Assembly: GCA_973851085.1 (NCBI GenBank)
Contig: OZ316775.1
Span: 8,494,001 to 8,558,000 of the forward strand
Origin: Ptychomitrium polyphyllum
Taxonomy: Eukaryota
Direction: 5' to 3'
DNA length: 64,000 bases
Both the position numbers and the translations under genes were made by a program. Shown one piece after another: positions 10,688-34,701 of the stretch (positions are counted from its first letter, which is position 1; the number at the start of each line of letters is the position of its first letter). The notes under the pieces are model-generated. The model saw only the letters and a program-made list of their open reading frames with translations. It ran no database searches and had not been told where the DNA came from.

Positions 10688-13600
10688 AACGCCGAATTGC
10701 AGTCCACAGAACGACCTTTCGCTATACAAGGCTTCAGTGCTATCCGATAGCGAGGTCAAGCCATGGTGGCAGAGCACATGTACCGAGACTGGGTTTCTGC
10801 TGGCCCCTGTTTCGAGAGCTGGAGGCCTGTGCACGATGGCCAGGGTTTGGTACGTCTAGAGCGATTTTGAGCACACGACCCGTCGATCTTGGGGAGTCGG
10901 CTCTGAGCAGCGGGGGTGGATGGTGTGAGACAGTTTTGGAGAGCGTCGTGTCGGCGGGTAGTGCAGGACGTGGTCAACTAGCCGGCTGAGGTGGACGATT
11001 GGCAATGTTTGCCCTCTCGCAGCCGTGGTGTGTCGGACGCATTCCGAGGCCAGAGGGCTCGTTGCGCATCGTGGGCCAGCGAGATGTGTTGAAATCTGGC
11101 GTCGGTGCATCCGGTTTGGGAGGTGGATGAAGCAGGAGGGCCTCATCGTAGGTAGTGCGGAGAGATCGGAGCCAGAGCCCTGTGCTGGGTGAAGAGCGTA
11201 GGGGTTCGAATCTCGGAGTCTGTCCGGTTTCAGCGCCCGTGCGTGCTGATCGCATCGCCGCAGACCGGCACGTTGCCGAGAGTTGTGTGAGGCATCCGGG
11301 CGCTGTGGTGAGTGTGCCAGCGCTGCGTGAGATGGATGGTGTATCCCGCACACGAAGTGAGCCGCATCTCCTCGTGCGTGTGTCGGGGAGGTTTGGACTG
11401 CGGGATGTCGAGATGCGTGGAGGGTTGAGGGCGATGTGTAGCCGGTGTTAACCGGAGCCATCGTCCGGCGAGCAGTGGGAGTTTGTGCGACGGTGGCTAT
11501 GTCGGGTTTGCGCTTGTGTGGTGGACGAGATTCGGTGCTGGGCTGATTCGTGAGCTGGTTGTTTCCTCCTGTGTCCGTTGGTTGTGAAATCTGGCGCCTG
11601 TGTGGAGGGGCACGGCCGCGGGAAACTGAGTGGGGGGCGTTTTGGGGTGTGCAGAGCGAATTGACTGGGCCGGAGTTGACCTTTGAAGGCGAGCACCATG
11701 TCGGAGCAGAGTGATGTGACGCAGAACGTCCCGGACCCCGTGATGGAGAACGTGAGCAGGATGCCCGCTTCTCAGACGGGTCCGATTTCGCAGTACGGAC
11801 CCGGCAACCGGTTCTTGACCAAGGACAGGACAGTGCACCAGATTCTAGGCGGAGGTCGAGGTAAGGCCCACGCATCTCTGGAGGAGCTGACAGTGCAGGC
11901 GCGGAGTGCGGAATCTGCCGGGTTCAGGCAGGGTCCGGTGTCCGGGTGGTCGGCGAACTGATCCGTTGGTGTTGGGTGTGGATGCAGCTGCCGATTCGGC
12001 TCTCTGGAGGGACAAGTATCTGTCGGCTGGGACTCTGGGCGGGTCGACGCTGGTGTGGTTTCTGTTGGAGAAGTCCGGGTACACGTTCATGACGCTGCTG
12101 TGCAACATTCTGATGTTCGCGGTGGTGATTCTGTTCGTGTGGTCGAACGTGGCCGCCCTGCTGCACAGGTTTGTGTCCGAGACCTGAATGTGACGGGTTC
12201 GTGGGAGATGGGCAATGAGATGGATGGTGGGAACGGGTGACGCCGCGTAAGGGACTCGGGTCTGTGCGGGTTCGTGACGCCGTAGGAGTCGGGTTTGGTT
12301 GTGAACGGAGACGTGTCTGCCAGCGGTGGCGAGGAGTTGGTGGGGACTGATGGGGTTACGGTGGGATTGTGGGTGTCAGAGCTGGCCCACCAGTACCGGA
12401 GCTGTCGCTGTCGGAGGATTTCGTTCTGAGCACAGCAAGCATGGTGCGCAACGACGTGAACAGGGCCCTGGCGATCGCGCGGGACGTCGCTCTGGGCAAG
12501 GATTTCAAGCTGTTTTTGCTGGTGAGCTGCGGTCATGCGAGCTGGGTAGGGGTCGACGGCAGGACGGTCGGGATGATTGTTGTAGGAGCGGAGGTCGAGG
12601 TTGTGTCGGAGCCCGTGGGCCGTTGCTGTGGGCGGTCGGGGAGTTGTGAGGAGCTGAACGGGGATGTGTGGCATGGGGCGCAGGTGATCGCGTTCCTGTA
12701 CGTTGTGTCGACGGTGACGGCGTGGTTCAACTTCCTGACGTGCGTGTGGATCGGTAAGCGGGCTGTGCCTTGGAGGAAGGACATGATGTGGTTGTGGGAT
12801 GGGCGGAGTGAGCCGACGGTGGCAGTGGGCACGGTTGATCGTGCGAGTCGCTGACATGATGGGCGTGTGGCAGGTATCGTGTTGCTGCACATCGTTCCGT
12901 TCATCTACGACAAGTACGAGGACGTGATCGACCACCACGCGAGGAGGGCGGCAGACGTAGCCAGCACCCACTACAAGAACGTGGACGCTGCGGTGTTGAG
13001 CAAGATCCCGAGGGCCCCGGCCAAGAAGAAGCTGTAGGTGCGCGAAGGTGGTGTCGGGCGATTGGGCGGGGGCCGCAGCGGGCGGGACGCAGCGCGAGAG
13101 GGGCGAGGGATATGTATATACGTACATACGTGGTGCACAGTAGGATTGGGGCGTATACCTTTGTGTTTTTGGATGTATGTAGCTCTGGAGTCGGCACTGT
13201 GCAGTATCGTAGGAGTAAGACGGATGGTCTGTAACGTGTACAGAATCCAGGTCTGTGGTTACGGAGGTTCCTTCATAAGTGGTGTCCGCGACGGGCATTT
13301 TTTAAAATCTAATTGGATCTTTCCCTTGATGTCGTGAGAGCGAGGGCGTGAGTGGGTGTCCGATGCGGGTGTCGTGGGTGCGGGCTTGCGGCGGTGCGTA
13401 GGAAGTGAGAACCGAGGCGCGGATCCTGAGGCCGTGGATGACGGGATCGCATCGCGCAGCGTACCGTCGCTGTGATGCGAGACGGTGAGTGTGAAGCAAG
13501 AGGTAGGTGTGGGTGGAAGATCCCGTCATCAACAGCCGAGGGTTCGGATGCTGTCGCTGTCGTTCCGGTGCGGCGGCATGTGCGGAAGCAACGGAACGCC

Positions 13601-14060
13601 GCAGCTCGTAGATGTGGCCGGACAAGCCCGGTCGGGGTGGAGAGAACGCAGAGCCGGTCTGGGTCCGTGGACGTGAGAGGGCACGTGGGAGAAACCGAGC
13701 GAGCGTGTGTGAGAGTGGGAAAGGGACTCGTCCGTCGAGGCAGTGCGCACCGGAGGCTGTGGAGCGAGCTGGTGGGCTTGGGAATGCTCGCTTGCCACCG
13801 GAATGTGGTTTTCACTGAACCTTGCACCCGGAAGCATTGGCACGGGAGTGGCGGTTCTCGACCGCAGTGGGTTTGCGTGGGAATGTTTTATGCGGTTTAT
13901 GCTGGACAGTATGGGGATCTATCGAGCTGAGTCTGAACGAGATGGTTGACGACGTGCACGGCGCCGTTGCGAAGTAGATGTGTATTGCGAAATGTGAATG
14001 CGTTGGAGTCCTTTTTGTGTAAAGCTAGCGTGACATCGTGGAGGATGTTTAGGCTTTTTT
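10688..14060 (+). repeat. Direct repeat copy 1 (3.37 kb, near-identical to 40523-43895)
   Basis: ORF tracks match at a constant offset of 29835; the only difference noticed is T13888 vs C43723. Imperfect match continues to ~10647. Confidence 0.95.
11698..13037 (+). CDS. RTNLB: Reticulon-like protein (RTNLB family), 239 aa, 5 coding exons: 11698-11860, 11988-12168, 12380-12521, 12684-12753, 12874-13037
   Basis: All introns GT..AG and phases consistent (720 nt). Protein has VHQILGGGRAADSALWRDKYLSAGTLGG...LFVWSN...DVALGKDFKLFL...WFNFLT...VPFIYDKYEDVID and ends AKKKL*, a KKXX ER-retrieval signal. 5'UTR acceptor at 11654. Confidence 0.95.
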
Positions 14061-16249
14061 CAGTCGTCGAGGTAGCGCGATCGGGTCCTCTGAGTGAGGA
14101 TTAATCCTCGCGGGCTTTATTTGCGTGTGGGGAAGTGTTTGGTTTTTCTATTTCGTTAGTGGTTGTTGGCAGTTTGAAACGGTGGAATGATTCAGCATTA
14201 TACTCTGGGCGTGGTTTTGGTTTTCTGTGTCGTCGTGATTGTATGTAGAAGATTCCTAAGGTTGCGTGCAGGTGGAGGTTATCCGGTTTTTGAAGAGTGT
14301 CATTAGGGGTTTGTAGGCGCCGTTTGTCGCTTTTTGAGACGTGGGATTGTTTGAGTGACGTCACTCTTGTCGTTCGAATTTTTGAATGTGACTGTCCTGA
14401 CGGTCTTTGACGTTGGGGTTATACTGGCCTGCAGCATGGGTGCTTTGGTGTTTGTATTACTTGTCTTTTGTTGAAGAAGTTACCTGCCACTAGTCGCGGC
14501 GTTCGTGTCAGTAGGGTAGTAGATTATGATTTTATTGCGGTTAGTAATTATTATTGGCTGTCTTTTGGTTAGTGTTGATCTGAAATTTTGGTTATTGGTT
14601 TAGGAAAAGCTTTTTGATTTTACGATGAGGTTCTTTTTGGTAGGTTAATTTATCAGTAGCGTAAATTCCTCCAATTGCTCGACAGATAAATAGTTAAATC
14701 CTTTTAGTAGAGATTAGTATTGCAGTTTTTCACTTTAATTATGTCCATTCTCAATATTGGTTGGCATTTCAATCTTTAAATGTGTAAATACAAATTTTCA
14801 ATATAATATTATTATCGAAATGAATGGAATAAGAATATAAATTAAGAGTTAGATTATAAAATATATTGATTGTTTGTTTTTTGTCATGTTATTTATATTT
14901 GGTTTATAGAATTGTTACTGGTGGATTGTGTAGGAGATGGAAGTAAGAGTTAAATGGCAGAGTTGTTATTACATATATGTATTTTTATTCTTGGATAAAT
15001 TGTATTTCCAATGTATGTCTTTTAATGTGGTTTAATATATTTTAATTGTGCAAATTGTTAGAATTTGTATTTATACATTTATGCATTCTTATCTATGGAT
15101 TATTATAAATTTATAAAATTTAGAGGTAGTTGTTGTAAAATTCTGTTTTTTACATGCCTTTTTTGTTCAATTTTATTTTAAAATTTCTTTTGATGTATTG
15201 AAATGATGTTGCTATTCTTGACAGTCATTCATATTACCACTTAATACTTCGTACAACAAAAGATTGGAATATCTTATTTTTTTATAATCACGTGTAGATA
15301 TATTAGATTTAGGAATTCAACTTAAGATGGAATTCTAATAAATGGCCTTGTTCATAAAATTTGGTGGAATATTAATTGATTAATTTACAAATGAAGAATT
15401 ATAATTGGTTCTATTATGTTTATCCAAGTAATAAACATCAATTAAATAATGTAACAAAGGATTTGAATGCTAACATGTTTTTTTAATATATATATATTAT
15501 GAGTTTAACGTAAAGTAAGGGTGATAGTAAAGGATATTTAGGAGGAAAGAAGAACTTCTATATTAAACTATAATAAAATTCATTAAGGTCACAACTAGTT
15601 TTTGGATCATTAACTAAAAGGGACAAAAATCTAGAACAATTGAGTTTCGTTTGTTATGTGTAATGAATGCCGAAAACACACATTGTAAAGAAAGTTGAAG
15701 TTTTTATTGGAATTAAAGTGTTAGTAAGCGTTTTTGGCTAGGATGTAATGAATTTGGAAGATTATCAAACAAAATTCTTCAAAGTATTTTCTTAGTTCAC
15801 AAAGTTATTAGAATTTTGGATATGCCAATTAATTGCTGAATAAAAGAATGCTTCACAATTAACTTTTAAATATTGAATTAGCTATTTCAAGACAATGCTA
15901 ATAGAATAGCTTTCATGTAAGGAGGGTCACTTCTTCAATTGTGGAAGAAGTATAAAAGATTCTAACAGTATTGCACTTACCAAAGATAATTCTTATGGCA
16001 TAATTGTAGATTGTAGAAAACAAATATTTAGATTTAACACTATTATTGTTCTAAAAAGATGTATAAATAGATGTCATAAATAATGTTGCAAGCGCTAAGA
16101 GTGGACTTTTGGAACTTGTTTCAAACATGGTTGTATCAAACAAGAAGTTTGAATTCAATCAATAATTGCTTTAATACAAGGTAGAAGATAAAGCCTCATC
16201 AAAGACATTTCTTTATCATTCCTTATTTAAAGTGCTAGAGCATGAGAAG

Positions 16250-16923: not shown

Positions 16924-17204
16924 CATTAAAGACACAAGAAATAAGAAGGAAATACATAGCACTTTTTGAGAATTAGCTTCCAAAGAACTAATGATTAACA
17001 ATAACTCATACAAAGACTGCAGCATGGCAGAATACAATATGATCCACAACTTGTGTTAGGAAGACTAAGGAATACCTTGTCTTGCCTCTTATTTATACTA
17101 TGACACTTATATCTTTTAAGATACTTCTAAAGAAGATTTTTACAAAGCTTAAGAATGTTCATTAAGTTTATGGAACTATTTAAAGAAAATTTTCAAGGAA
17201 TTAG
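16924..17204 (-). mobile_element. Partial LTR, probably the 3' LTR of element D (pairs with 34286-34701); interrupted by element A
   Basis: Shares variants (gaactaatg, gcatggca, aatatgatcc, cttatatctttta, ttttacaaagc) with 34286-34701 that the younger LTRs lack. Confidence 0.7.
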
Positions 17205-19989
17205 TGTTAGGGATACAAGAAACAAGAAGCAGAAACGAAGTGTTTCCGAAGAATTAGCTTCGAAAGAGCTAATGATTAACAAGAACTTGACACAATGACT
17301 GAAACAAGGCAGGATTCAAGATGATTCACAACTAAGACTAAGAAATACCTTGTCTTTCCTCCTATTTAAACTATGACATTTGTATCTCGTAGGATACTTC
17401 TAAAGAAGCTTCCTACAAGGCTTAAGAATGTTCTAGAAGTCTAGAGAACCTTCCCAAGAAGTTTCCTAAGATGTTGAAATTTTCCTTGGAAGTTTCCTAA
17501 GATGGACGAACCTTCCTTGGAAGTTTCCTAAGGTGATAGAATCTTTGTAGGAAGTTTCTTAAAAAGTTACCTAAGATGATAGAACCTTCTTAGGAAGTTT
17601 TCTGAGGTGGAAGAACTTTTCTAGAAAGCTTTCTAAGAACACTCCTAAGAAGTTTTTTAAGAACATAGAAAGGCTATGGAGACATTTAAATATATTTTAA
17701 GAAACTATTATATATATATATTAGAAGGTTCTAAAGTGTTTTAAAAACTATGTTGCATGATTTATGCCCGTAACATCACCTCCCCATTTAGCGACGAGTT
17801 CCATGACTTGTCACATTTCTTTTCTTTGCTTGCTTGTCACATTTCTACAAATTTCAAAACTCGTCGAAGGAGTGAAGCAACATATTCAACTTGTTGTGGA
17901 TATTCCATTTCATTATTGATTTCCAGCAATGAGGTGGAGGGACAATTCTTTCTGGTATACATGATTTGTTATAGGTTTCCAACAACGATACGTAGAATAT
18001 TGGATGAATATACATGCTTGGTGGTAGTTTTATGCGATAACTAATCGGATTTATTTGATTGCTGATTTTAAACGGTCCCAACCTTTGATAGTCCAACTTC
18101 TTTGATGGTCTTTTTTGTTTGTATATTTTGTCGTAGAAGCTACACGCTATCTCCAACCTTGAACTTTGGATGGTCCTTTTGATAGTGATTTGTATAAGTT
18201 TTGTAATGATTTTGAGCTTGTTGTAACCTGGAAGGCAATTTCTTAATGGATTTTAGCAAGTTGAATTGCAAAATCTTCTATTGCAGGATTTCCAACATAC
18301 TCCATTTGAAATGAATCTGCTCGAAGATAATGCCCATAGTTTGGAAAGAATGGACTCTGAGTTGTTGAAGAATGTACCGTATTGTTGTAAGCAAACTTTG
18401 CTAATGGCAAGAGATCCATCCAGTTGTCTTGCTGGTAGTTTATACTACAATGAAGGTATTGTTCCAAAATTTAATTCACACGTTCGGTTTGACCATTAGT
18501 TTGCGGATGGTGTGCTGAAGAAAAGTTGATCTTTACTTGCAACAGCTCGAATAGAATCTTCTAAAAGTTGGAAATGAACTACGGCCCTTGATCAAATACA
18601 AAATCATTTAATAGTCCATGTATGCGGTAGCCGTGATTTAGGAACAACTTGGCAATTTCTTCTCCCATTACCGTCTCGCTGCATGGAATGAAATGTGCCA
18701 TTTTGGTAAATTGATCTACCACTATCAAAATAAAATCCTTAGAATCAGAGTTTAGAAGGTCCGTAATAAAATCCATTGATAAAGACAACCATGCGCCCTT
18801 TGGCACTAGAAGCAAATGGAGGAGACCATGAAGTTGGTATCTTGGTACCTTGGCTCTTGCACAAGTGTTGCATGATCAAACAAAGTCCTTCACGTTCTTC
18901 GACATTTGTAGCCACTAATAGTCTCTAGCAATCAATTCCACTATTTTATTGAATCCAAAATATTCTACTGCTGGAAAATCATGAAGTGCTTGAAGGATCT
19001 TCAACCGCAAAGGGCCTGGACGTAGATACAAAAGTCCTTTATAATAAAATGGGCCCTCTTGGAATTCAAAATCCTCATCGCCATTTGAAAGATCTCCATT
19101 ATCTTTGAGGCGCTTCTTTATATTTGAAACAAAGATATTATTCTTTAATGCCTTCCAAATTTCATCAAATGGAATGTTGTCGTACTAATGGCTGCTTTCA
19201 ATTGAAGATTCTCTAACTTCAATAAAATAATCCTTTGTTGATCCAAAACATCAACTCCAGGCTGAGGGACTAAAGAAGATCTTTTGAGATAAGGCATCTG
19301 GCTTACCTTGTAGGCTACTAGGTTGATAGGTAATGACAAAGCCAAATTTGAAAAGCGATATACTCCATCTTCCTTGACGGCGATTCAAAACACGCGCACT
19401 CATGAAATACTCCAAGTTCTTGTGGTCTGTGTGTATCGTGATGGTATGTTGAGCTCCTTCCAACAAGTGTTGGCATTCTTCAAACGCATCCACAATTGCA
19501 AGTAATTCTTTATTATGGATATCATAGTTGATCACTGCCGCTGAGAATTTTCTTAAACGAAAGGCAAGAGGGTGAAATCTCCTGTCTTCATCATATTGTA
19601 AACGTACTGAGCCAAGTGCAAAATCTAAGGCATTTACTTCCAAATAAAAAGGCTTAAATGGATTTAAATGAATAAGGATTAGAGCCGATGTGAATGACGT
19701 CTTAAGACTTTAAAATGCTTTTTTCGCCTTTACATTCCAAATGAATCTTTATTTCTCCATAAAACGTGTTAATGGTGCCGCAATCTTGAAATAATCCTTG
19801 ATAAATATCCTGTAGAAGTTTGCAAATCCCAAGAAGCATTGAACATCTTGGATTGATCTTGGAGTATTCTACTAAATGACAGTGCTTATTTTCTTCTTAT
19901 CTATATGGATTCCTCCTTTGGAAATGATGTAGCCTAAAAATTCAACCAAGGATTCATGGAAAAGGCACTTCTTCAATTTGGCATACAAT
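17205..19989 (-). mobile_element. Chromovirus element A: 3' LTR (17205-17775), integrase, RNase H and partial RT; truncated
   Basis: TG..CA LTR with adjacent PPT; ORF fragments 18243-18815 (integrase) and 19251-19643 (RNase H); cut in RT at 19989 by the LTR of element B. Confidence 0.9.
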
Positions 19990-22900
19990 TGTTAGGGACA
20001 CAAGAAACAAGAAGCAAAAATGAAGTGATTTCCAAGAATTAGCTTCCATAGAGCTAATGATTAACAAGAACTTGATACAAAGACTAGAACAAGGTAGGAT
20101 TCAAGATGATTCACAACTTGTGTTGGCAAGACTAAGGAATACCTTGTCTTGCCTCCTATTTATACTATGACGTTTGAATCTCCTAGGATACTTCTAAAGA
20201 AGCTTCCTACAAGGCTTAAGAATGTTCTGGAAGTCTGGGGAACCTTCTAAAGAGTCTTCCAAGGAGTTGGAACCTTCCTAAGAGTCTTCCAAGGAATTGG
20301 AACCTTCCTTGGAAGTTTCCTAAAGTAGCGGAACCTTCCTTGGAAGTTTCCTGAAGAGGTAGAACCTTCCTAGGAAGTTTCCTAAGGTGATGGAAGCTTC
20401 CTAGGAAGTAATCTAAGATGATAGAACCTTCCTAGGAAGTTTCTTAAGGTGGAGGAACTTTCCTGGGAAGCTTCCTAAAAACATAAAAAAGGCTATGGAG
20501 ACATCTAAAAGTATTCTAAGAAACTATTCTAGTATATTAGAAGGTTCTCAAATGTTCTAAGGATTATGTTGCATGATCTATGTCCGTGACATCACCTCCC
20601 CTTTTAGCGACGAGTCCCATGAGGAGCTCTTTTCTTGGCTTGCTTGTCACATTTCTACAAATTCCAAAATTTGTCAAAGGAGTGAAGCAACATATTCTGC
20701 TTGTTGTTCTCTGTTCACTGGCTCAACTGGTCCTTGCAAGAAGCGTCGATGGCCACCAGCCAAGACTTCTGTTGTTGAAATGTTCCATTCCAAGATCTGA
20801 TCTTGATTAAGTCCTTCAAAACATCCTCCAAACAAGATTTCGGGTCCTCCAGGGGTGACTCTTCCAATTTCCAATAAGATGACTAGAGCGCGAGCATCTG
20901 AATCAAGACTGGAATGTGAAGGGCGACTAGTCAATACTTCTGCACGAGGTCGTACTCGACGTTGGGATGTCCCTCTCATATCTTGACTTAGATCCTCCGT
21001 TACCGAGGGCTAAGAAAGTTGAGTTGGCTCAACAGATGCTGTTGTTGATGAAGGCATGGCCGACTGCTCTTTACGCATATCCATGATAACACAAAGATTT
21101 GACATACTGGCTAGGATCTAGAAATGATCTATCTTGGAAATAATGCTGCATACAATTGGAGGTCTGGATATCTCTCCTCCCTTCTTATACTTGTCTACAA
21201 AGGAAAAACTTCTCTGTGAAGCTAACGGCTGCTGATGACACATCATCACTGATCTGGTTTCTGAGGATATTTTTGATGAAATTTGCTTACCTTCTCGGAT
21301 GCGTTTGTTACATTCGTTGAAGGTTCCCATGTTCGGTCATTGATGCCATATCCTTGCCAATGTATAAGATACTCCACACGTCCGTTCTTGATGCGTGAAT
21401 CTAAGATATCTTCCACTTCATATTCAATTTTATTATTGATTTCCAGCGGAGGAGGCGGAGGGACAATTCTCTCTGGTAAACATGATTTGTAATAGGTTTC
21501 CAACAACAATACGTGGAACACTGGATGAATTTGCATGCTTGGTGGTAGCTTTAGGCGATAACTAACCGGATTTATTTGTTTGTTGATTTCAAACGGTCCA
21601 AGCCTTTGATAGTCCAACTTCTTTGATGGTCTTTTTGTCTGTATATTTTGTTGTAGGAGCCATACGCTATCTCCAACCTTGAACTTTGGATGGTCCTTCC
21701 GATGGCGATCTGCATAAGTTTTGTAACGATCTTGAGCTTGTTGTAATTGGAAGGTAATTTCTTGATGGATTTTAGCAAGTTGAATTGCAAAATCCTCTGC
21801 TGCAGGACTTCCAACATGCTTCACTTGAAATGGATCTGTTCCAGGATGATGGCCATAGTTTGCAAATAATGGACTTTGAGTTGTTCAAGAAGGCACCGTA
21901 TTGTTATAAGCAAATTCTGCCAAAGGCAAGAGATCCATCCAGTTGTCTTGCTGGTAGTTTATGCTACAACGAAGGTATTGCTCCAAAATTTGATTCACAC
22001 GTTCGGTTTGGCCATCAATTTGTGGATGGTGTGCTGAAGAAAGATTGATCTTTACACGCAATAGCTGGAATAGAGCCCTCCAAAAGTTAGAAATGAATTG
22101 CGGCCCCCGATTGGATACAATATCATCTGGTAGTCCATAAATGCAGTAGTTGTGATTTAAAAACAACTTGGCAGTTTCTTCTTCCGTTACCGTCTTATTG
22201 CATGGAATGAAATGTGCCATTTTTGTAAATCGATCCACCACTACCAAAATAGAATCCTTAGAATCGGAATTTGGAAGGTCCGTGATAAAATCCATTGATA
22301 AAGACAACCATGGGCCCCTTGGCACTGGAAGCGGATGGAAGAGACCATGAGATTGGTGCCTTGGTACCTTGGCTCTTGCACAAGTGTCGCATGATCGAAT
22401 AAAGTCCTTTACGTACTTCCACATTTGTGGCCACCAATAGTCTCTAGCAATCAATTTCATTGTTTTATTGAATCCAAAATGTCCTGCTGCTAGAAAATCA
22501 TGACGTGCTTGAAGGATCTTCAACCGCAAAGGGTCTGGAGGTAGGTACAAAAGTCCTTTATAATAAAGTAGGCCCTCTTGGAATTCAAAGTCTTCATTGC
22601 TATTTGAAGGATTTCCATTGTCTTGGAGGCGCTTCTTTATATTTGAAACAAAGACGTCATTCTTGAAAGCCTTCCGAATTTCGTCAAAATGGGATGTTGT
22701 CGTAATAATGGCTGCTTTCAATTGAAGATTCTCAGGCTTCAATAAAATAGTCCTTTGTTGATTCAAAACATCATCTCCAGGTTGAGGAGCTAAATAAGAT
22801 CTTCAAGATAAGGCATCTGGCTTATCTTGCAAGCTACCAGATCGATAGGTAATGACAAATTCAAATCTGGAAAGCGACATACTCCACCTTGCTTGACGGC

Positions 22901-23623
22901 GATTCAAAACGCGCGCACTCATGAAATACTCCAAGTTTTTGTGATCTGTGTATATCGTGATGGTATGTTGAGCTCCTTCCAATAAGTGTCGCCATTCTTC
23001 AAACGCATCTACAATTGCAAGTAGTTCTTTATCATGTATATCATAGTTGATCTCTGCCGCTCAGAACTTCCTTGAACGAAAGGCAAGAGGGTGAAGTCTC
23101 CCGTCTTCATCATATTGTGAGAGTACTGAGCCAAGCGCAAAATCTGAGGCATTTGCTTCCAAATAGAAAGGCTTTGATGGATTTGGATGAATAAGAATTG
23201 GAGCCGACGTGAATGACTTCTTAAGACTTTGAAATGCTTTTTCCGCCTCTTCATCCCAAATGAATTTTTGCTTCCCCATAAGACGTGTTAATGGTGCCGC
23301 AATATTGGAATAATTCTTGATGAATATTCTATAGAAGTTTGCAAATCCCAAGAAGCATTGAACATCTCGAATTGATCTTGGCGTACTCCACTCCGTGACA
23401 GTGCTTATTTTTTTCTTATCCATATGGATTCCTCCTTTGGAAATGATGTAGCCTAAAAATTCAACCGATGATTCATGGAAAAGGCACTTCTCCAATTTGG
23501 CATATAATCCTCGCTGGCGTAGTTTTTCTAGGACCATTTGCACATGACATTCGTGGTCTTGTTCATCCTTTGAATATATCAGAATGTTAACTAAGTAGTT
23601 GACTACAAAATCATTAAGATGTT
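19990..23623 (-). mobile_element. Chromovirus element B: 3' LTR (19990-20591), extra ORF, chromodomain, integrase, RNase H, partial RT; left arm of the inverted repeat
   Basis: ORFs 21246-21824, 21885-22766 and 23061-23543 translate identically to their counterparts within 27703-30000; mirror coordinates sum to 51246. Confidence 0.95.
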
Positions 23624-25675
23624 AAAGTAGTAATTATTAGATAAGGATTTGATAAAAGAGATTAAGGGCTGATATAGAGAAATATAGGTGATGTGGAGTT
23701 ATAGGGGGCAGATGTGGCGGATGTGGCAGTTTAATTACCGCCCTCTTCTTCTCTCTTGGCCTCTACCACTAAAATAAAAGGCAGCCTTTCTTTAGGTGAG
23801 ATCTCATAGTATACTTCTTAGTTTGAGTTGATTGTTGTTGGAGGATTTTTCTTTTGTGTAGGCTTTTCAAAAAGCTATCGCACGCTCCATTAGGAGTTAA
23901 TATGTGGTCGTGGCTTTAGTTTGAATAATTAAAGTTAGCTACCTTGACTTTTTAAGGGTAACTATTTAAATGTTTGTAACTTCTTGTAGAAACATCTTTT
24001 GTAAGTGAAATTTTGAAAGAAAGGTTTAGATTACTTTGAAAAAGTAGTATCAAAATTTGATAAGCATTGAACTTTTTGAGTAAAAAATATAAAGAAAAAT
24101 GCAACCAGGACCTAGAGGGCAATGTACAGTAGAGTTTGGAGTTGCACAATTTGGGTCATTGTATATGATTAAGGAGATTTCTGAAGTTGATCTTTTGACA
24201 GGGTGTTTATTATAAGATATACATTATATACACAAAGTTTAAAGTTTGAGTTTGCAATGAAAGAAGAGTTATTTAGTGGTAAAGTGATAGGGGTATAGAA
24301 GCTGTAGCCATGAAGAATGTAAATTGTGAAGTTATGGATCCTAGAGGGTACTAAGGATTAAGCAATCAAAATTTATATATAGCTTATTGAATGTTTCAAT
24401 AAGATTTTGTTAAGATATTTTGATGCTTTTGATTAATTTATTAGAAGTTATGACATATTTAGCATTTGGGATTTTCAAGGCAGCGTAGAAGGAAAATTTG
24501 GAATAGCGTATTTGCTTCATTGGATGTTAGAAATTTAAACTTTTTATGCATCTTGACCTTGATCAATTAGATGCTAAAAAAGACCCTATGTTTCTTATAC
24601 CTACCACTCTCACCATAACATTGTTTAAAGGCAATTCTCAACATGCACACTCATAAAGTGTCAAGTACATGAATCATGCAACATAGTCCTTAGAACATTT
24701 GAGAACCTTCTAATATACTAGAATAGTTTCTTAGAATACTTTTAGATGTCTCCATAGTCTTTTTTATGTTTTTAGGAAGCTTTCCAGGAAAGTTCCTCCA
24801 CCTTAAGAAACTTCCTAGGAAGGTTCTATCATCTAAGATTACTTCCTAGGAAGCTTCCATCACCTTAGCAAACTTCCTCGGAAGGTTCTACCTCTTCAGG
24901 AAACTTCCTAAGAAGGTTCCGCTACCTTGGGAAACTTCCAAGGAAGGTTCCAATTCCTTGAAAGCTTCCAAAGAAGGTTCCAACATCTTAGGAAACTTCT
25001 TAGGAAGGTTCCCTATATTTCCAGAACATTCTTAAGCCTTGTAGGAAGCTTCTTTAAAAGTATCATAGGAGATACAAACGTCCTAGTATAAATAGGAGGC
25101 AAGATAAGGTATTCCTTACTCTTGCCAACACAAGTTGTGGATCATCTTGAATCCTACCTTGTTCTAGTCTTTGTATCAACTTCTTGTTAATCATTAGCTC
25201 TTTGGAAGCTAATTCTTGGAAAACACTTCGTTTTTGCTTCTTGTTTCTTGTGTCCTTAACAGTTTGGCAAGACTACTCTTCATCTTTGTCAGAGCTAAGG
25301 TTTTTTGAAGAAGATTGTGGATTACCCATCTTCTTTAGGATTCCATAGCGTCTTAGAGGTTGCGGATTACCCTCCTTCAAGCTGGCACCATAGAGTTGGT
25401 TTCTCCTTCTAGAATCAAGTATTACTTCTTTCAAAGGACGTGGATTTCCTCCTTTGAAGGTACTCATACTCTTTCTGTCTTTGAGAGTCTTAAGAAATGA
25501 ATAATGTGCTTGGAACATCAGAGAATAGATTTGCAACTATTGCAGACCTTCAAGAATTATTAAACACAGTTTGAACGGAACTCGCCTGTTTTAATACCAC
25601 CAACAATTTGGAGCAACACACTCGGCAAGCTGAAGAATCCAATGGTGATATTCAAAATTTATATCAAGAAGTAGT

Positions 25676-26515
25676 TTGATTACAGAGGCCAATATTAAAA
25701 GAGAAGGCTTACGTCAAACCCATGCAGAGCCAAAGATTTGCAAACCAGACAAGTTCAATAAATCAAGATCAAAATTGAGAGGCGTTGTTCAACAATTAAG
25801 ACTCTTCCTTAGTTTGCATCAATTTCGCTATCCTAAAGACACAACTCAAGTGAGATTTGTCATCACTATTTTATTAGACAATGTCTCATCGTGGTTTGCA
25901 CCATTAATGGAGAAGTTGTCACTATTATTCAACAAATTGGATACTTTTATAGAAGCATTGACATCTACTTTTGGAGTCACCAACCAAGAGAGGGTGGCTG
26001 AGACAAGGATCCAAAACCTACAACAAGAACAACACTCAGCAACTACATATGCTGCAGAGTTTTGACAATTAGCTTGCAACCTTGATTAGAATGATAAAGC
26101 CTTGGTCACAAGATTTCGATGGGGCTTAAGAGAGAATGTCAAGGACTTGCTACTCACAATGCCAAGAGTTGAAACATTGGACGAATTCATCACTCAAGCA
26201 ATAGCATGTAACAACAGATTATTTGAGAGGCGCCAAGAACAACGCTTGGGATGGCGACCAGTACATCAAAGCATGGGTACCACTTCTTCAAGAGTATCCG
26301 AAAGTCGACCGCAAGGACCAGAACCTATGCAAATTGATGCTGCCCAGTTCAGACGCTTGACTCCAGAAGAAAAAAAAAGGCGTCGAAGAGAAAACCTCTG
26401 CTTGTATTGTGGCAAGTCTGGACATAAAGTGCGCGACTGCCAAATCAAAGGATCTGCTTTTAAGGCTCAAAGCACAATGGTGGAGTTGGAAAACGAGGCT
26501 GTCCAGTCACAGTAG
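25676..26515 (+). pseudogene. gag: gag of element C (interrupted by stops)
   Basis: Retrotransposon gag-like core (KPDKF...SWFAPL...YAAEF), PEPMQID motif and zinc knuckle CLYCGKSGHKVRDC; premature stops near 26063 and 26087. Confidence 0.9.
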
Positions 26516-29500
26516 GGACCATGCAATTGGACACCACAAGGAAACCACCATCAAATCAAGGTCTCTTACTACCTTCAAATCCTACCTCTTGTTTTACATT
26601 TCCTATCAAAATAAAGTTGTTAGATGATGAAATAATTAGCGAGGCTCTCTTAGACACTGGTGCAACAGCATGTTTTATGGACAAGGATTTTGCAACCAAG
26701 CATCACATGGTGCTTGTGAAGAAAAAATATCCCGCACCTGTTGAAGTTATTGATGGACGATCTCTTGCGTCTGGCAACATTATTGAAGAAACTCAACCAT
26801 TGGAGGTTATTTTAGGAGACCAGGCATCTAAGATTGTCTTCAACATCATTCAATGCCAAATGAATCCTATTGTTTTGGACCTTCCTTGGTTTGAATTACA
26901 TAATCCAGACATTGACTGGCGCTCACGGAGTGTGGTCTCAAGGAAAAGACGCCAAGGTACGAGAAATCTTGGACCATCATTTATTGGAGCTAAGGCATTT
27001 ATGAGAGCAGCAAAAAATGAAGCAATCTGTGCCGTTTATGCCACGCCAATGTCTAGCTCTACAATAGAGAGTAATCAAAATATACCTCGCCAATATCAAG
27101 ATTATAAAGATGTTTTTGAAAAAAAGAATGCGAACATGTTACCAAAGCACCGGCCTTACGATTGTACCATTGAGTTGCAAAAATGAGCCCAACCACCTTT
27201 TGGACCTATTTATAACTTATCATAAACTGAGTTGGCTGCCTTGAGAGATTATATTTAGGAAAACCTTGGAAAGGGTTTCATTCAACATTCTAAATCACCT
27301 ACTGGAGCACCCATTCTGTTTGTAAAGAAAAAAGATGGATCATCACGTATGTGCGTGGATTATTGAGGTCTCAACAAAGTAACAAAAAAGAATCACTATC
27401 CATTACCATTAATCTCAGGACTCCTACAACAACTTGGCCAAACAAGAATATTCACCAAAATTGATCTTAGAGGAGCCTACAATCTTGTACGCATCTAAGA
27501 AAGAATTGAATAGAAAACAGCTTTTCGATATAGGTATGGTCATTTTGAATACAATGTCATGCCTTTTGGCCTTACTAATGCTCTCGCAGTCTTTCAACAT
27601 ATGATGAATGATATCTTCCATGAACATCTTAATGATTTTGTAGTCAACTACTTAGTTAACATTCTGATATATTCAAAGGATGAACAAGACCACGAATGTC
27701 ATGTGCAAATGGTCCTAGAAAAACTACGCCAGCGAGGATTATATGCCAAATTGGAGAAGTGCCTTTTCCATGAATCATCGGTTGAATTTTTAGGCTACAT
27801 CATTTCCAAAGGAGGAATCCATATGGATAAGAAAAAAATAAGCACTGTCACGGAGTGGAGTACGCCAAGATCAATTCGAGATGTTCAATGCTTCTTGGGA
27901 TTTGCAAACTTCTATAGAATATTCATCAAGAATTATTCCAATATTGCGGCACCATTAACACGTCTTATGGGGAAGCAAAAATTCATTTGGGATGAAGAGG
28001 CGGAAAAAGCATTTCAAAGTCTTAAGAAGTCATTCACGTCGGCTCCAATTCTTATTCATCCAAATCCATCAAAGCCTTTCTATTTGGAAGCAAATGCCTC
28101 AGATTTTGCGCTTGGCTCAGTACTCTCACAATATGATGAAGACGGGAGACTTCACCCTCTTGCCTTTCGTTCAAGGAAGTTCTGAGCGGCAGAGATCAAC
28201 TATGATATACATGATAAAGAACTACTTGCAATTGTAGATGCGTTTGAAGAATGGCGACACTTATTGGAAGGAGCTCAACATACCATCACGATATACACAG
28301 ATCACAAAAACTTGGAGTATTTCATGAGTGCGCGCGTTTTGAATCGCCGTCAAGCAAGGTGGAGTATGTCGCTTTCCAGATTTGAATTTGTCATTACCTA
28401 TCGATCTGGTAGCTTGCAAGATAAGCCAGATGCCTTATCTTGAAGATCTTATTTAGCTCCTCAACCTGGAGATGATGTTTTGAATCAACAAAGGACTATT
28501 TTATTGAAGCCTGAGAATCTTCAATTGAAAGCAGCCATTATTACGACAACATCCCATTTTGACGAAATTCGGAAGGCTTTCAAGAATGACGTCTTTGTTT
28601 CAAATATAAAGAAGCGCCTCCAAGACAATGGAAATCCTTCAAATAGCAATGAAGACTTTGAATTCCAAGAGGGCCTACTTTATTATAAAGGACTTTTGTA
28701 CCTACCTCCAGACCCTTTGCGGTTGAAGATCCTTCAAGCACGTCATGATTTTCTAGCAGCAGGACATTTTGGATTCAATAAAACAATGAAATTGATTGCT
28801 AGAGACTATTGGTGGCCACAAATGTGGAAGTACGTAAAGGACTTTATTCGATCATGCGACACTTGTGCAAGAGCCAAGGTACCAAGGCACCAATCTCATG
28901 GTCTCTTCCATCCGCTTCCAGTGCCAAGGGGCCCATGGTTGTCTTTATCAATGGATTTTATCACGGACCTTCCAAATTCCGATTCTAAGGATTCTATTTT
29001 GGTAGTGGTGGATCGATTTACAAAAATGGCACATTTCATTCCATGCAATAAGACGGTAACGGAAGAAGAAACTGCCAAGTTGTTTTTAAATCACAACTAC
29101 TGCATTTATGGACTACCAGATGATATTGTATCCAATCGGGGGCCGCAATTCATTTCTAACTTTTGGAGGGCTCTATTCCAGCTATTGCGTGTAAAGATCA
29201 ATCTTTCTTCAGCACACCATCCACAAATTGATGGCCAAACCGAACGTGTGAATCAAATTTTGGAGCAATACCTTCGTTGTAGCATAAACTACCAGCAAGA
29301 CAACTGGATGGATCTCTTGCCTTTGGCAGAATTTGCTTATAACAATACGGTGCCTTCTTGAACAACTCAAAGTCCATTATTTGCAAACTATGGCCATCAT
29401 CCTGGAACAGATCCATTTCAAGTGAAGCATGTTGGAAGTCCTGCAGCAGAGGATTTTGCAATTCAACTTGCTAAAATCCATCAAGAAATTACCTTCCAAT

Positions 29501-30000
29501 TACAACAAGCTCAAGATCGTTACAAAACTTATGCAGATCGCCATCGGAAGGACCATCCAAAGTTCAAGGTTGGAGATAGCGTATGGCTCCTACAACAAAA
29601 TATACAGACAAAAAGACCATCAAAGAAGTTGGACTATCAAAGGCTTGGACCGTTTGAAATCAACAAACAAATAAATCCGGTTAGTTATCGCCTAAAGCTA
29701 CCACCAAGCATGCAAATTCATCCAGTGTTCCACGTATTGTTGTTGGAAACCTATTACAAATCATGTTTACCAGAGAGAATTGTCCCTCCGCCTCCTCCGC
29801 TGGAAATCAATAATAAAATTGAATATGAAGTGGAAGATATCTTAGATTCACGCATCAAGAACGGACGTGTGGAGTATCTTATACATTGGCAAGGATATGG
29901 CATCAATGACCGAACATGGGAACCTTCAACGAATGTAACAAACGCATCCGAGAAGGTAAGCAAATTTCATCAAAAATATCCTCAGAAACCAGATCAGTGA
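26488..30000 (+). pseudogene. pol: pol of element C: protease, RT, RNase H, integrase, chromodomain (inactivated)
   Basis: LLDTGA protease; MPFGLTNA RT with YLDD mutated to YLVN; integrase H..H..CDTC zinc finger and LGPF; chromodomain [22 protein letters not shown]; about 9 in-frame stops counted by eye. Confidence 0.93.
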
Positions 30001-31256
30001 TGATGTGTCATCAGCAGCCGTTAGCTTCACAGAGAAGTTTTTCCTTTGTAGACAAGTATAAGAAGGGAGGAGAGATATCCAGACCTCCAATTGTATGCAG
30101 CATTATTTCCAAGATAGATCATTTCTAGATCCTAGCCAGTATGTCAAATCTTTGTGTTATCATGGATATGCGTAAAGAGCAGTCGGCCATGCCTTCATCA
30201 ACAACAGCATCTGTTGAGCCAACTCAACTTTCTTAGCCCTCGGTAACGGAGGATCTAAGTCAAGATATGAGAGGGACATCCCAACGTCGAGTACGACCTC
30301 GTGCAGAAGTATTGACTAGTCGCCCTTCACATTCCAGTCTTGATTCAGATGCTCGCGCTCTAGTCATCTTATTGGAAATTGGAAGAGTCACCCCTGGAGG
30401 ACCCGAAATCTTGTTTGGAGGATGTTTTGAAGGACTTAATCAAGATCAGATCTTGGAATGGAACATTTCAACAACAGAAGTCTTGGCTGGTGGCCATCGA
30501 CGCTTCTTGCAAGGACCAGTTGAGCCAGTGAACAGAGAACAACAAGCAGAATATGTTGCTTCACTCCTTTGACAAATTTTGGAATTTGTAGAAATGTGAC
30601 AAGCAAGCCAAGAAAAGAGCTCCTCATGGGACTCGTCGCTAAAAGGGGAGGTGATGTCACGGACATAGATCATGCAACATAATCCTTAGAACATTTGAGA
30701 ACCTTCTAATATACTAGAATAGTTTCTTAGAATACTTTTAGATGTCTCCATAGCCTTTTTTATGTTTTTAGGAAGCTTCCCAGGAAAGTTCCTCCACCTT
30801 AAGAAACTTCCTAGGAAGGTTCTATCATCTTAGATTACTTCCTAGGAAGCTTCCATCACCTTAGGAAACTTCCTAGGAAGGTTCTACCTCTTCAGGAAAC
30901 TTCCAAGGAAGGTTCCGCTACTTTAGGAAACTTCCAAGGAAGGTTCCAATTCCTTGGAAGACTCTTAGGAAGGTTCCAACTCCTTGGAAGACTCTTTAGA
31001 AGGTTCCCCAGACTTCCAGAACATTCTTAAGCCTTGTAGGAAGCTTCTTTAGAAGTATCCTAGGAGATTCAAACGTCATAGTATAAATAGGAGGCAAGAC
31101 AAGGTATTCCTTAGGCTTGCCAACACAAGTTGTGGATCATCTTGAATCCTACCTTGTTCTAGTCTTTGTATCAACTTCTTGTTAATCATTAGCTCTATGG
31201 AAGCTAATTCTTGGGAAACACTTCGTTTCTGCTTCTTGTTTCTTGTGTCACTAACA

Positions 31257-34200
31257 TAAAGTACTCCAAGTTCTTGTGGTTTGCTTATATTAAGATGGTA
31301 TGTTAAGCTCCTTTCAACATGTGCTACCATTCTTCAAATGCATCTACAATTGCAAGTAATTCTTTATCATATATATCATAATTGATTTCAGCCGCTCAGA
31401 GCTTCTTTGAACAAAAGGCAATAAGGTGGAATCTCTCGTCTTCATCATATTTTGAAAGTACTAAGCCAAGAGAAGGCTTTGATGGATTTAGATGAATAAG
31501 GATTGAAGCCGACATGAATAACTTCTTAAGACCTTGAAATGCTTTTTTTACCTCTTCATTCCAAGTGAATTTTTGCTTCTATGTAAGTCAAATTAGTAGT
31601 GCCGCAATCTTGTGATAATCCTTGATGAATATCTTGTAGAAGTTTGCAAATTCCAAAAAGCATTGAACATCTCAAATTGATCTCAATGTATTTTACTTTA
31701 TGATAGCGTTTATTTTTATTTCATCCATATGGAATTCTCCTTTAGAGATGATGTAGCCTAAAATATCAATCAAGGATTCATGGAAAATGCACTTATCCAA
31801 ATTGGCATGTAATCCTCGCTAGCGTAGCTTTTTTAAGATCAACCGCAGATGACATTTGTGATCTTAATCATCCTTTGAATACATCAAAATGTCATCCAAG
31901 TAGATGATTACAAAATAATCCAAATATTCATAGAAGATATCATTCATTATGTGTTGGAAGACTGCAGGGGCATTAATAAGGCCAAAAATCATGATATTGT
32001 ATTCAAAATGGCCATACCTAGATTGCAAGGTTGTCTTCCATTTGTCTTTTTTTTTTAATACATACAAAGTTGTAGGCTCTTCTAAGGTCAATCTTATTGA
32101 ATATCTTTGTTTGGCTAAGTTGTTGTAAGAGTTTTGAAATGAAAAATAATGGACATCGATTCTTCTTAATCACTTTATTGAGGCCCCAATAGTTCACGTA
32201 CATATATAATGATCCATCTTTCTATTTTACATTTAAAACGGGTATTCTAGTAGATGATTTGGAGTGTTGGCTAATGGCATTTTCAAGGTTTTCATTGATA
32301 TATTTTCTCAAGGCAGTCAACTTGTTTTGTGTTATGTTATCAATAGATTCAAAAGGTGGTTGGGCTCCATCTTGCAACTCAATGGTACAATTTCAAGGTT
32401 GGTGCTTTGGTAATATATCTGCATTCTTCTTTTCTAATACATCTTTATAGTCTTGGTATTGATGAGGTATGTCTTGATTAATTTTTGGTATAAAGTTAGA
32501 CATTGGCATAGCATAAATGGCATAAATTGATTTATCCTTTGCCGCTCTTATTAATGTCTTAGATCCAATAAATAATGGTCCAATATTTCTCGTAACTTCA
32601 CGTCTTTTCCTTGAGACCACACTATGTGAGCCCCAATCAATGTCTAAATTATGTAATTCAAATCAAGAAAGGCCTAAGACAATAAGGTTTGTTCGGCATT
32701 AAATGATGTTGAAGACAACCTTAGATGCTTGGTCTCCTAAAACAACCTCCAAGAGTTGGGTTTATATAATAACATTGTCAAATGCAAGAAATCGTCCATT
32801 GATAACTTCAATAAGTGTAAGATATTTTTTGTTCACAAACACTACATGGTATTTGGTTGCAAAATCCTTATTTGTGAAGCATGCGGTTGGACAAGTGTCT
32901 TAAAGAGCCTCACCAATTATTTCATCGCCTAACAATTGGATTTTGATAGGAAATGTAAAGCAAGAAGATGAAGTTGGAAGTAGTAAGAGACCTTGATTTG
33001 ATGGTCGTTTCCTTGTGGTGTCCAGTTGCATAATCTCTAATGTGATTGGACAGTCTTGTTTTCCAACTCTACCATTGTGCTTTGAGCCTTGAAGGCAAAT
33101 CCTTTAAATTAGCAATTGTGCACTTTTTCTCCAGACTTGCCCCAATACAAACATAAGTTTCCTCATTGACACCTTTTTTTTTCTTTTGGAATTAAATGAC
33201 TAAATTGGGCAGCATCAATTTGCATAGGTTATGGTCTTTATAATTGGCTTTCTAATACTTTTGAAGAAGTGTTTGTTATACTCTAATGTATCGGACGCTA
33301 TCCCAAGCGTTGTCATTAGCACATCTCAAATAATCTATTGTCACATGCTATTGCTTGAGTGATGAAGTCGTCTCCTATTTCAACCTTTGGTATTATAAGT
33401 AGCAAATTCTTCAGATTCTTTCTCAAGCCCCATTAAGATTATATGACCAAGGCCTTCTTATTCTAATCAAGGTCATAAGCTAGTTATTAAAATTCTACAG
33501 CATATATAGCAGCCAAGCATTGTCTTTGTTGTAGGCTTTGGATTCTTGTTTTAGCCACTTTCTCTCAGTTAGTGTCTCCAAAAGTAGATGTCAACTCTTC
33601 CATGAAAGCATCTAAATTATTCAATAATGGTGACTTCTTCTTTATTAATGGTGCAAAGCACGATAGTGCATTGTTTGATAGAAGAGTGGCTACAAATTTT
33701 ACTTGAGTAGTGCCATCAGGATAGCAAGATCAACGCAAACTGAAGAAGAGCCTTAGTTGTTGAAAAAAAATTCAACTTTGACTTCAATCCATCAAATTTG
33801 TTTGGAATACAAATCTTTGAATCTATATGGTTTTAACGTAAGTCTTTCCTTCCAATATTGACCTTGTAATCAAATATCTATTTGATATAGATTTTAAATA
33901 TGGCCATTGAATTCTTTAGTTTGTCAAATGTGCTGTTTTAAATTGATAGTCGTGTTGAAGCGTGCAGGTTTTGTTTGAAAGATCAATATTAGTTGCAAAA
34001 TGCTTTTCTGATGTTTCTTATATATTATCCATACTTATGATTGTCAAATACAATAAGACTATAAATACCTTTAAAGAAGAGAAATTTGCGTGTATTGAAA
34101 GATTGATCCTCCTTCAAAAAAAAAATACTTACTTTTAGAAGAAGAAGCCATTTTTTGGTATCAACTTAAAGAAGGGTAATCTACAACCTCCAAAATGCTA

Positions 34201-34701
34201 TGAGATTATTAAAAAGATGGATAACCCGTTATTTTTTTTCAAAAAACCTAAGCTTTAATAACGATAAAGAGTACTCTTGTCAAATAATTAAGATCACAAG
34301 AAACAAGAAGTAGATCCAATGTATTTACCAAGAATTAGCTTCCAAAGAACTAATGATTAACGAGAATTCATACAAAGATTAGAGCATGGCAAAATATAAT
34401 ATGATCCACAACTTGTGTTGGCAAAACTAAGGTATACCTTGTCTTACCTCCTATTTATACTATGACGCTTATATCTTTTAAAATACTTCTAAAGAAGCTT
34501 TTTACAAAGCTTAAGAATGTTCTTTAAGTCTATAGAACTGTTTCAAGAATTTTTCTAAGGAATTGGAACTTTCTTAGGAAATTTCTTAAAGTAGTGGAAA
34601 CAGCTATTGAAGCATTGAAAGTATTCTAAAAAACTACTACAATATATTAGAAGGTTTTAAAAGCTTCTAAAGAATGTTCTTTATGATCCATATCCGTGAT
34701 A
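31257..34701 (-). mobile_element. Older chromovirus element D: RNase H, RT, protease, gag and 5' LTR (~34286-34701); target of element C
   Basis: RT fragment with IYLDDILMYS (31864-32091); protease and gag remnants. Removing C rejoins CACACTCA-TAAAG-TACTCCAAG, the RNase H segment also seen at ~19390-19420. Confidence 0.9.

Follow-up and report, generated by a model that had tools for sequence, protein, structure and literature searches.

A recent ectopic gene conversion probably made two dead inverted chromoviruses in the moss Ptychomitrium polyphyllum identical over 3.5 kb

Non-allelic gene conversion between plant LTR retrotransposons leaves homogenized patches in which sequence identity no longer tracks insertion age, and in the accessible portion of PMC7251063 conversion between the LTRs of one element is much commoner than conversion between elements. 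One-sided invasion and SDSA in plants, as cited from Puchta (1998) in the available text of PMC9299229, give non-crossover products with one homologous junction and possibly one end-joined. Near-perfect multi-kilobase inverted arms in human Y palindromes and Caenorhabditis gene pairs are likewise attributed to conversion (PMC1803023, in extract). The locus described here resembles each of these. Unlike the LTR cases of PMC7251063, however, its tract joins two elements, extends over 3.5 kb and consists mostly of internal coding DNA. Unlike the gene-targeting experiments of Puchta, it is a natural event inferred from its product, for which the one-sided variant is one of two routes. Whereas the palindromes and gene pairs of PMC1803023 are described there as old, gene-bearing and maintained across species, the arms here are dead transposon DNA without evidence of maintenance. 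The process is of a known kind and the locus is a neat example of it, with no function indicated. Our literature search, to which most subscription journals were outside scope, recovered the general process; for mosses it yielded no description of such a tract.

The window, meaning the whole stretch analyzed, comprises 64,000 nt of P. polyphyllum (GCA_973851085.1, contig OZ316775.1, 8,494,001-8,558,000); all positions are the window's. The elements and the repeat are arranged as follows:

16926-17204, minus strand: E, an older LTR fragment, the target of A's insertion and possibly D's 3' LTR (similarity to D 5' LTR)
17205-19989, minus strand: A, an older dead copy reduced to its 3' half (3' LTR, integrase, RNase H, RT end), 5' half missing
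19990-20131, minus strand: B's own outer LTR end (predicted R-U5), not homogenized (8 differences from C 3' LTR, 6 from C 5' LTR)
20132-20177, minus strand: interval containing the outer tract boundary (allele and motif positions)
20132-23623, minus strand: left arm (B), with U3, polypurine tract, chromodomain-integrase, RNase H and 3' RT (0/3492 mismatches, Pfam domains)
23624-24610, no strand: F, middle-repetitive DNA joined to B's truncated end (junction contigs, summed depth)
24654-24658, plus strand: left TAAAG copy of C's target-site duplication (the ~45 bp before it resemble D's RNase H)
24659-27622, plus strand: C 5' half, inside the spacer, with gag, protease and 5' RT (Pfam Ty3_capsid, zf-CCHC and Asp_protease, matches mostly under the curated cut-off)
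27623-31114, plus strand: right arm (C 3' half), exact match to the left arm
31115-31256, plus strand: C's own outer LTR end (predicted R-U5), not homogenized (LTR comparison)
31257-34701, minus strand: right TAAAG copy of C's target-site duplication (31257-31261), then D, much older and extending from RNase H to 5' LTR (alignment)

The first-pass annotation had described an apparently perfect inverted repeat with a 4.0 kb spacer and had suggested an exact alignment of the arms. That alignment, of 20132-23623 with the reverse complement of 27623-31114, returned 0/3492 mismatches (95% upper bound on divergence 0.086%), and 3999 bp (23624-27622) separate the arms. Directly outside them, 8 mismatches were counted in 142 bp, the number given earlier; at this divergence (5.6%) the chance of 0/3492 is P ~1e-88. 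Similarity ends outside these outer 142 bp, the LTR ends being 19990 and 31256, and the inner limit of identity is sharp, at 23623/27623. As the annotation had it, both arms carry the same lesions, namely stops at 28183, 28441 and 29359 and the YLVN motif. Given these three stops, alterations in 6/106 conserved RT/RNase H columns and many sites at which nearly all family contigs carry another letter, the arm sequence is old. The reading frame of the right arm continues that of the C 5' half over 27622/27623.

Judged from sequence, the elements are dead Tcn1-like chromoviruses (Ty3/gypsy). Pfam matches give the order gag-protease-RT-RNase H-integrase-chromodomain between LTRs (Chromo E=4.6e-15). 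Under the definition in PMC6317226, an LTR stretch of at least 10 nt complementary to sequence 0-5 bp downstream of the 5' LTR, a self-primer is predicted in B's LTR (12 nt exact); C's own mutated LTRs retain 9 and 8 nt exact, and none was found in A's LTR. The start of R is predicted to pair with the primer-binding site (z=-1.5). The host falls within the moss or club-moss range, since one reticulon exon matches proteins of Ceratodon purpureus at 97% identity and those of Physcomitrium patens at 78-81%. Moss host, domain order, predicted self-priming and a 5-bp target duplication are all features of Tcn1 clade chromoviruses in the available parts of PMC6317226 and PMC2864245; unlike the elements described there, the copies here are dead and nested. 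The nearest proteins are 72-79% identical and unnamed, with no named Tcn1 reference among the matches listed, and a scan of viral contigs yielded 7 pattern matches and 0 relatives. The family numbers thousands of copies (summed depth ~2 million vs 300, an order of magnitude only).

C's 5' LTR (24659-25261) is followed by a self-priming-type primer-binding site, and its 5' half has 6 stops in 26464-27622. The hand count of roughly 7% divergence between C's LTRs was accurate (43/602 positions, 7.1%). The claim that B and C occupy separate insertion sites stood where B's LTR end adjoins A's RT at 19989/19990 and where TAAAG flanks C on both sides; it was weaker for the left continuation of D, ~45 bp by eye, which scored 49 against a shuffle mean of 41.8 and maximum of 56 (100 shuffles). 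Since this continuation does not beat shuffles, C is placed within D on the strength of its right flank and of the 5-bp duplication. D is 77% identical to C and deviates in 61/182 conserved columns. A is 87.8% identical to B/C over 2092 bp, matches Pfam SH3_Tf2-1 and RT_RNaseH, and deviates in 18/90 conserved columns. E and D's 5' LTR share 238/281 positions in direct orientation, and one contig spans the E|A join with 0 differences. For F, no Pfam match was obtained in 6/6 frames, a presumed resemblance to a copia RT motif is unsupported, and a second copy of its left end was sought within the window and not found; its summed depth is 48,000-125,000 vs 300. Metagenome matches to a 20-mer from F (7 loci) extended over just 22-30 bp or were absent from blastn, and were taken as chance. 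The last four arm bases, TGTT at the B/F join, could be microhomology or an LTR start.

We consider it probable that the identity of these two long-dead inverted copies reflects a single recent repair, templated by DNA and completed without crossover (SDSA-type ectopic gene conversion). A recent long conversion or fold-back repair between inverted copies had been proposed in the first-pass annotation. The homogenizing event is supported by 0/3492 mismatches against 8/142 outside, by separate junctions and by old lesions common to both arms, and the locus shows the pattern by which gene conversion is recognized, homologues that had diverged beforehand and whose identity falls off abruptly where the tract ends. 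Classical fold-back repair, in contrast, primes past the repeat and gives an inverted dimer, dicentric in the accessible text of PMC10164571, whereas both flanks are preserved here. That text also shows cis pairing, in single-stranded DNA, of inverted repeats with as much as 25% divergence and as much as 30 kb between them; an interaction of B with C before they became identical is thus feasible. The flanks were not exchanged, C's LTRs remaining in direct orientation, and the intact TAAAG duplication excludes a crossover. Two simpler origins were rejected. Plain inverted duplication of C's 3' half does not account for B's own LTR end and insertion site, and B is not a direct retrotransposed daughter of C, since its R-U5 differs from C's 5' LTR at 6/142 bp; the outer 142 bp fit neither LTR of C (8 and 6 differences). 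A local DNA process is favored because, among thousands of copies, the twin is the neighbor 4 kb away.

Such a repair would have started when one copy was broken in its LTR promoter or close to it (LTR positions 416-460). The broken end would have invaded the neighboring inverted LTR, then ~94% identical, and ~3.5 kb would have been copied inward. End joining at 23623/23624 may then have linked the copy to unrelated DNA, with loss of the 5' halves of both A and B as part of that event, which would be one-sided invasion from C to B; alternatively, B may have been truncated beforehand and synthesis trimmed where homology ends (either direction). All three relative-decay tests of direction were non-significant, each leaning to a younger arm: stops (arm 3 in 2372 bp vs 6 in 1159 bp, P=0.067), conserved columns (arm 6/106 vs 8/96, P=0.58) and LTR relative rate (12 vs 17, P=0.46; without the tandem array 3 vs 10, P=0.09). 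CpG values were 0.81 and 0.64 in the arm vs 0.51 and 0.47 in the C 5' half, a contrast set aside because D has the same regional trend.

A second near-identical tract, a direct repeat carrying a reticulon gene, surrounds the locus:

10647-14063, plus strand: reticulon gene copy 1 (Pfam Reticulon)
40482-43898, plus strand: reticulon gene copy 2, in flanking DNA unrelated to that around copy 1

The two copies differ at 7 positions in 3417 bp, with 3200 bp exact, and a search for similarity between their flanks gave none at E<=1e-3. Three tandem Ceratodon reticulons are just 91-92% identical to the first as proteins; against that background, a 3.4 kb tract with unrelated flanks counts for the conversion reading. 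The two near-identical tracts, 3.5 kb and ~3.4 kb, are of almost equal length and lie within the same 33 kb.

The outer boundary is where other templates have to be weighed. Along the LTR, the last arm-private allele is at 415, the TATA box at 428, the predicted self-primer at 458-469 and the first mismatch at 461. The boundary lies at most 46 bp from the predicted transcript start, for which the chance is ~8% within the LTR and 1.3% within the whole homology. A DNA-only model must therefore assume easily broken promoters, which counts against conversion. A promoter scan gave chance levels, its model being bacterial and the host a moss. The stop of identity at the transcript start would be explained if the dead retrotransposon's own RNA or partial cDNA had templated repair of its neighbor in cis, which we regard as unlikely. 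Just as unlikely, B would be a recombinant reverse transcript, with R-U5 from a third copy's RNA and, after first-strand transfer to the RNA of dead C, U3 through RT from the latter. One end of the incomplete cDNA would have integrated in A and the other been attached by end joining; alternatively, the cDNA would have recombined with a copy already resident. The interval LTR 416-460 does end at the predicted transcript start and self-primer, and B terminates exactly at the LTR end. Fission-yeast Tf2, of the same self-priming group, reportedly moves chiefly by cDNA recombination (a title cited in PMC7175516). However, the cDNA would have had to land 4-11 kb from its donor, and priming of the Tf1 type, in which the first 11 RNA bases are the primer (PMC7175516, in part), predicts C's allele at LTR site 461, where B carries the other. 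X1 and X2 are two contig sets from a single sample, probably that from which the assembly was made, and were built independently of it. In X2, B's U5 (20007-20077) has a depth of 46.5, like the single-copy flank (41.9), so no identical U5 donor is evident, with X2 depth uneven (25.8 at the inner junction).

It is rather improbable that the arms are truly ~6% apart and were collapsed to one sequence in assembly or polishing. The identity is perfect within a family of thousands of copies, the evidence from reads consists of contigs, and the second near-identical 3.4 kb pair in the window is known from the assembly sequence alone. Against collapse, the contig with the private YLVN lesion (23558-23616) has a depth of 562 in X1, 1.8-1.9 times single copy, whereas both B junctions are at single-copy depth (A|B 308, X1; B|F 301 over 23594-23803, X1, and 25.8 over 23558-23816, X2, both B|F contigs with 0 differences). 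The double depth concerns ~60/3492 arm bases, at the inner end; the other 5 X1 arm pieces listed (depth 1100-14,778) are common to more copies and uninformative. The X2 contig runs with 0 differences through 66 arm bases, linking the lesion to the junction that only B has, and the X1 junction contig begins exactly 30 bases inside the arm, as expected where a second identical copy merges. Two features of the X2 inner-junction contig count against conversion, its low depth (25.8 vs 41.9-46.5 nearby), which also favors collapse, and its continuity at the point where C should branch off. X3 and X4, of low depth and under another organism label, contained family relatives only, with no 0-difference piece among those listed. 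Of 8 sequencing runs listed as matching, 1 contains at least half of the sequence words searched, and none of those listed is an RNA run, a result that weighs neither way.

We likewise give little credence to recurrent arm-to-arm conversion that keeps the repeat, as in palindrome-like concerted evolution, the advantage perhaps being a read-through hairpin RNA that helps to silence the family. An older patch is possible at LTR site 543, where B and C's 3' LTR have an allele that neither C's 5' LTR nor A, D or E carries, and 5/7 of the reticulon-tract differences fall in the first 41 bp, like an older tract edge. A single clean tract with 0 differences and a cliff, however, needs one event only, and silencing would require an 11 kb read-through transcript where thousands of copies could already supply silencing RNA. 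A further reading, in which a single young non-autonomous subfamily already bearing the lesions inserted twice and gave B and C as sisters, is largely refuted and highly improbable: some ~50 bp arm stretches are common to about 4-50 copies, but C's LTRs are 7.1% apart, 8 sites distinguish B from C in the outer 142 bp, and depth at the YLVN lesion corresponds to two copies only.

Of the consequences first proposed, a large hairpin, taken as a cruciform in duplex DNA, is not upheld, extrusion being unlikely with a 4 kb spacer (PMC10164571, in the part available). The dsRNA or siRNA also proposed would call for a transcript across the two arms and for small RNAs made from them. Nor has the spacer undergone a net inversion; C's intact target-site duplication means that the ancestral orientation was assembled.

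What the event left is likely a passive scar of repair that has no function. It offers a clean natural record of a 3.5 kb conversion between ~94% identical retrotransposon copies, with tract ends mapped within tens of bases. If RNA or cDNA templating were true, then together with the reticulon tract it would mean that multi-kilobase overwriting of 94%-identical neighbors is frequent in the moss and can reset transposon ages. Should both tracts prove real and typical, sequence identity would be an unreliable clock for transposons and tandem genes in P. polyphyllum, and tract lengths and rates would be measurable genome-wide from such pairs.

The 20132-23623 portion of B (left arm) and the reverse complement of the 3' half of C, 27623-31114 (right arm), aligned directly with no mismatch over 3,492 bp across a 3,999-bp spacer, in agreement with the perfect 3.5-kb inverted repeat and ~4.0-kb spacer claimed by the first-pass annotation. 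Identity ends abruptly at the inner edge, while outward of the arms the next 142 bp, reaching the LTR termini at 19990 and 31256, contain 8 differing sites, as previously counted. At this outer divergence (5.6%) arms free of any mismatch would arise with a probability of ~1e-88; arm divergence has a 95% upper bound of 0.086%. The 5' and 3' LTRs of C differ at 43 of 602 sites, matching an earlier hand count of about 7%. Since the arms are essentially identical while the LTRs of C are not, homogenisation appears recent relative to the age of C, being younger than roughly 1-2% of that age provided LTR divergence tracks age. At LTR position 543 (window 20049 and 31197), within the otherwise unconverted 142 bp, B and the C 3' LTR have an allele that neither the C 5' LTR nor A, D, or E carries, which may mark a short patch of older conversion.

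Features of the retrotransposon nest
16926-17204: E, LTR fragment, 85% identical to the 5' LTR of D (34287-34566), direct orientation
17205-19989, minus strand: A, 3' half only
19990-23623, minus strand: B, 3' half only, insertion site in the RT of A
23624-24610: F, middle-repetitive element of ~1 kb
24659-31256, plus strand: C, complete, TAAAG on both flanks
right of C, to ~34701, minus strand: D
20123-20134, 25264-25275, 31112-31123: predicted Tf1-type self-primer and primer-binding site complementarity

The LTR end of B at 19990, abutting the RT of A, bears out the claimed insertion site, and the 5' halves of both A and B are missing. The claimed insertion of C in the RNase H of D is supported by the intact TAAAG and the right flank, but the continuation of D left of C covers only ~45 bp by eye and its alignment score was not above shuffles. 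E may be the 3' LTR of D, putting A, B, F, and C all within D. Decay at conserved RT/RNase H columns is stronger in A (18/90 altered) and D (61/182) than in C (14/202). In C, six stops and several conserved-column changes cluster at 27184-27658, from ~450 bp left of the inner junction to 35 bp inside; the protease region just upstream runs 240 codons without a stop. F, also found in a run labelled as another organism, is preceded at its left end by TGTT, possibly microhomology or the beginning of an LTR.

Eight sequencing runs contain part of the window, of which X1 and X2 derive from one sample, probably the assembly source. Artificial identity through assembly collapse is unlikely on this evidence, which comes from contigs rather than long reads. 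In X1, the A|B (19960-20014) and B|F (23594-23803) junction contigs had depths of 308 and 301, like unique flank (302), while a contig inside the arm carrying the YLDD-to-YLVN lesion (23558-23616) reached 562, or about two copies. The B|F contig starts exactly 30 bases within the arm, the merge point expected for a second identical copy; the short sides of these junction contigs (30 and 25 letters) are below the 31-letter rule for bridging. An X2 contig (23558-23816) joins the lesion to the inner junction across 66 arm bases with 0 differences. Conversely, double depth was assessed over only ~60 of 3,492 arm bases, with 16 of 15,547 contig pieces listed, the other five listed X1 arm pieces were multi-copy, and the X2 contig had a depth of 25.8 versus 41.9-46.5 nearby, without a split.

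The elements, with domain order gag-protease-RT-RNase H-integrase-chromodomain, appear Tcn1-like, as assigned by features rather than by a tree including named references. Some 30 nt past the TATA box at 428, 12 nt of the B LTR (positions 458-469) match the complement of the sequence directly after the C 5' LTR, in agreement with the self-primer criterion described for the moss Tcn1 clade (PMC6317226); the copies in the two LTRs of C each have a substitution. Summed over the family, contig depth comes to ~2 million, compared with 300 in single-copy DNA, which suggests thousands of copies although such a sum does not count copies directly. A far older copy, 64-69% identical, occupies 3959-7816 (minus strand). 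Intermolecular first-strand transfer during reverse transcription would be expected to end identity at the U3/R border, and the coincidence of the tract end with that border has, by our arithmetic, an ~8% chance within the LTR. Such a cDNA origin is nevertheless improbable: it requires landing beside the donor, the predicted primer (on the Tf1 priming scheme of PMC7175516) includes site 461, where B has an allele other than that of C, and the U5 contig depth of B resembles single copy. B was also rejected as a plain inverted duplicate of the C 3' half (its LTR end and its insertion junction are not those of C), as a young sister insertion (the lesion occurs at two-copy depth only), and as a direct retrotransposed daughter of C (its R-U5, expected to match the C 5' LTR, differs from it at 6 of 142 sites).

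The product fits a single non-crossover, homology-directed copying between neighbouring elements. The identity cliff, separate junctions, and intact flanks agree with the recent conversion or repair between separately inserted inverted copies proposed initially. The target-site duplication of C is intact in the current orientation, hence there was no flank exchange or net flip of the spacer, although inversion, also suggested earlier, could now be permitted by the perfect arms. The outer limit of the tract falls after LTR 415, the last arm-private allele, and before the first mismatch at 461, an interval covering the TATA box and ending at the predicted transcript start; the inner end coincides with the truncation of B. 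We infer that a break in this interval would have let the broken end invade the inverted neighbour, followed by ~3.5 kb of synthesis. Either the same event truncated B, with a one-sided invasion completed by end joining (C to B), comparable to the model of Puchta as cited in PMC9299229, or B was truncated earlier and the new strand trimmed where homology stops, in either direction. In yeast, repeats this distant and diverged have been shown to pair in single-stranded DNA (PMC10164571). Tests of direction using stop codons (P=0.067), conserved columns (P=0.58), and LTR relative rates (P=0.46; P=0.09 without the tandem array) each leaned toward an arm younger than the C 5' half, with B as donor, and none was significant. 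Compared with A at the 10 variable sites of the outer 142 bp, B, C5', and C3' all have 5 differences, so B is not shown to be younger there.

A neighbouring reticulon gene exon shares 97% identity with proteins of Ceratodon purpureus and 78-81% with those of Physcomitrium patens, indicating a moss host. Two reticulon copies flank the nest, 29.8 kb apart:
10647-14063: reticulon copy 1, direct repeat with copy 2
40482-43898: reticulon copy 2, direct repeat with copy 1
They differ at 7 of 3,417 sites, five within the first 41 bp, with 3,200 bp exact. The shared tract includes introns and the 3' region, whereas neither the upstream nor the downstream flanks are related. In Ceratodon, the locus numbers of three reticulon genes are adjacent, and the proteins of the second and third share 91% and 92% identity with that of the first. 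Near-identical copies, unrelated flanks, and this lower identity in Ceratodon suggest a tandem pair of old origin, homogenised not long ago through a tract of comparable length, which is likely a further case of recent conversion. A very high homologous repair rate is reported for P. patens (PMC3729371).

No function is indicated for the inverted repeat. As to the large hairpin envisaged earlier, a 4-kb spacer disfavours cruciforms (PMC10164571), and double-stranded RNA would require an 11-kb read-through transcript, the transcript of C itself spanning one arm only. Conversion among LTR elements (PMC7251063), arm-to-arm conversion (PMC1803023), and the homogenisation of short inverted repeats by template switching (PMC8604942) have been described, and this inverted repeat represents an unusually long, well-bounded case of such known homogenisation processes.
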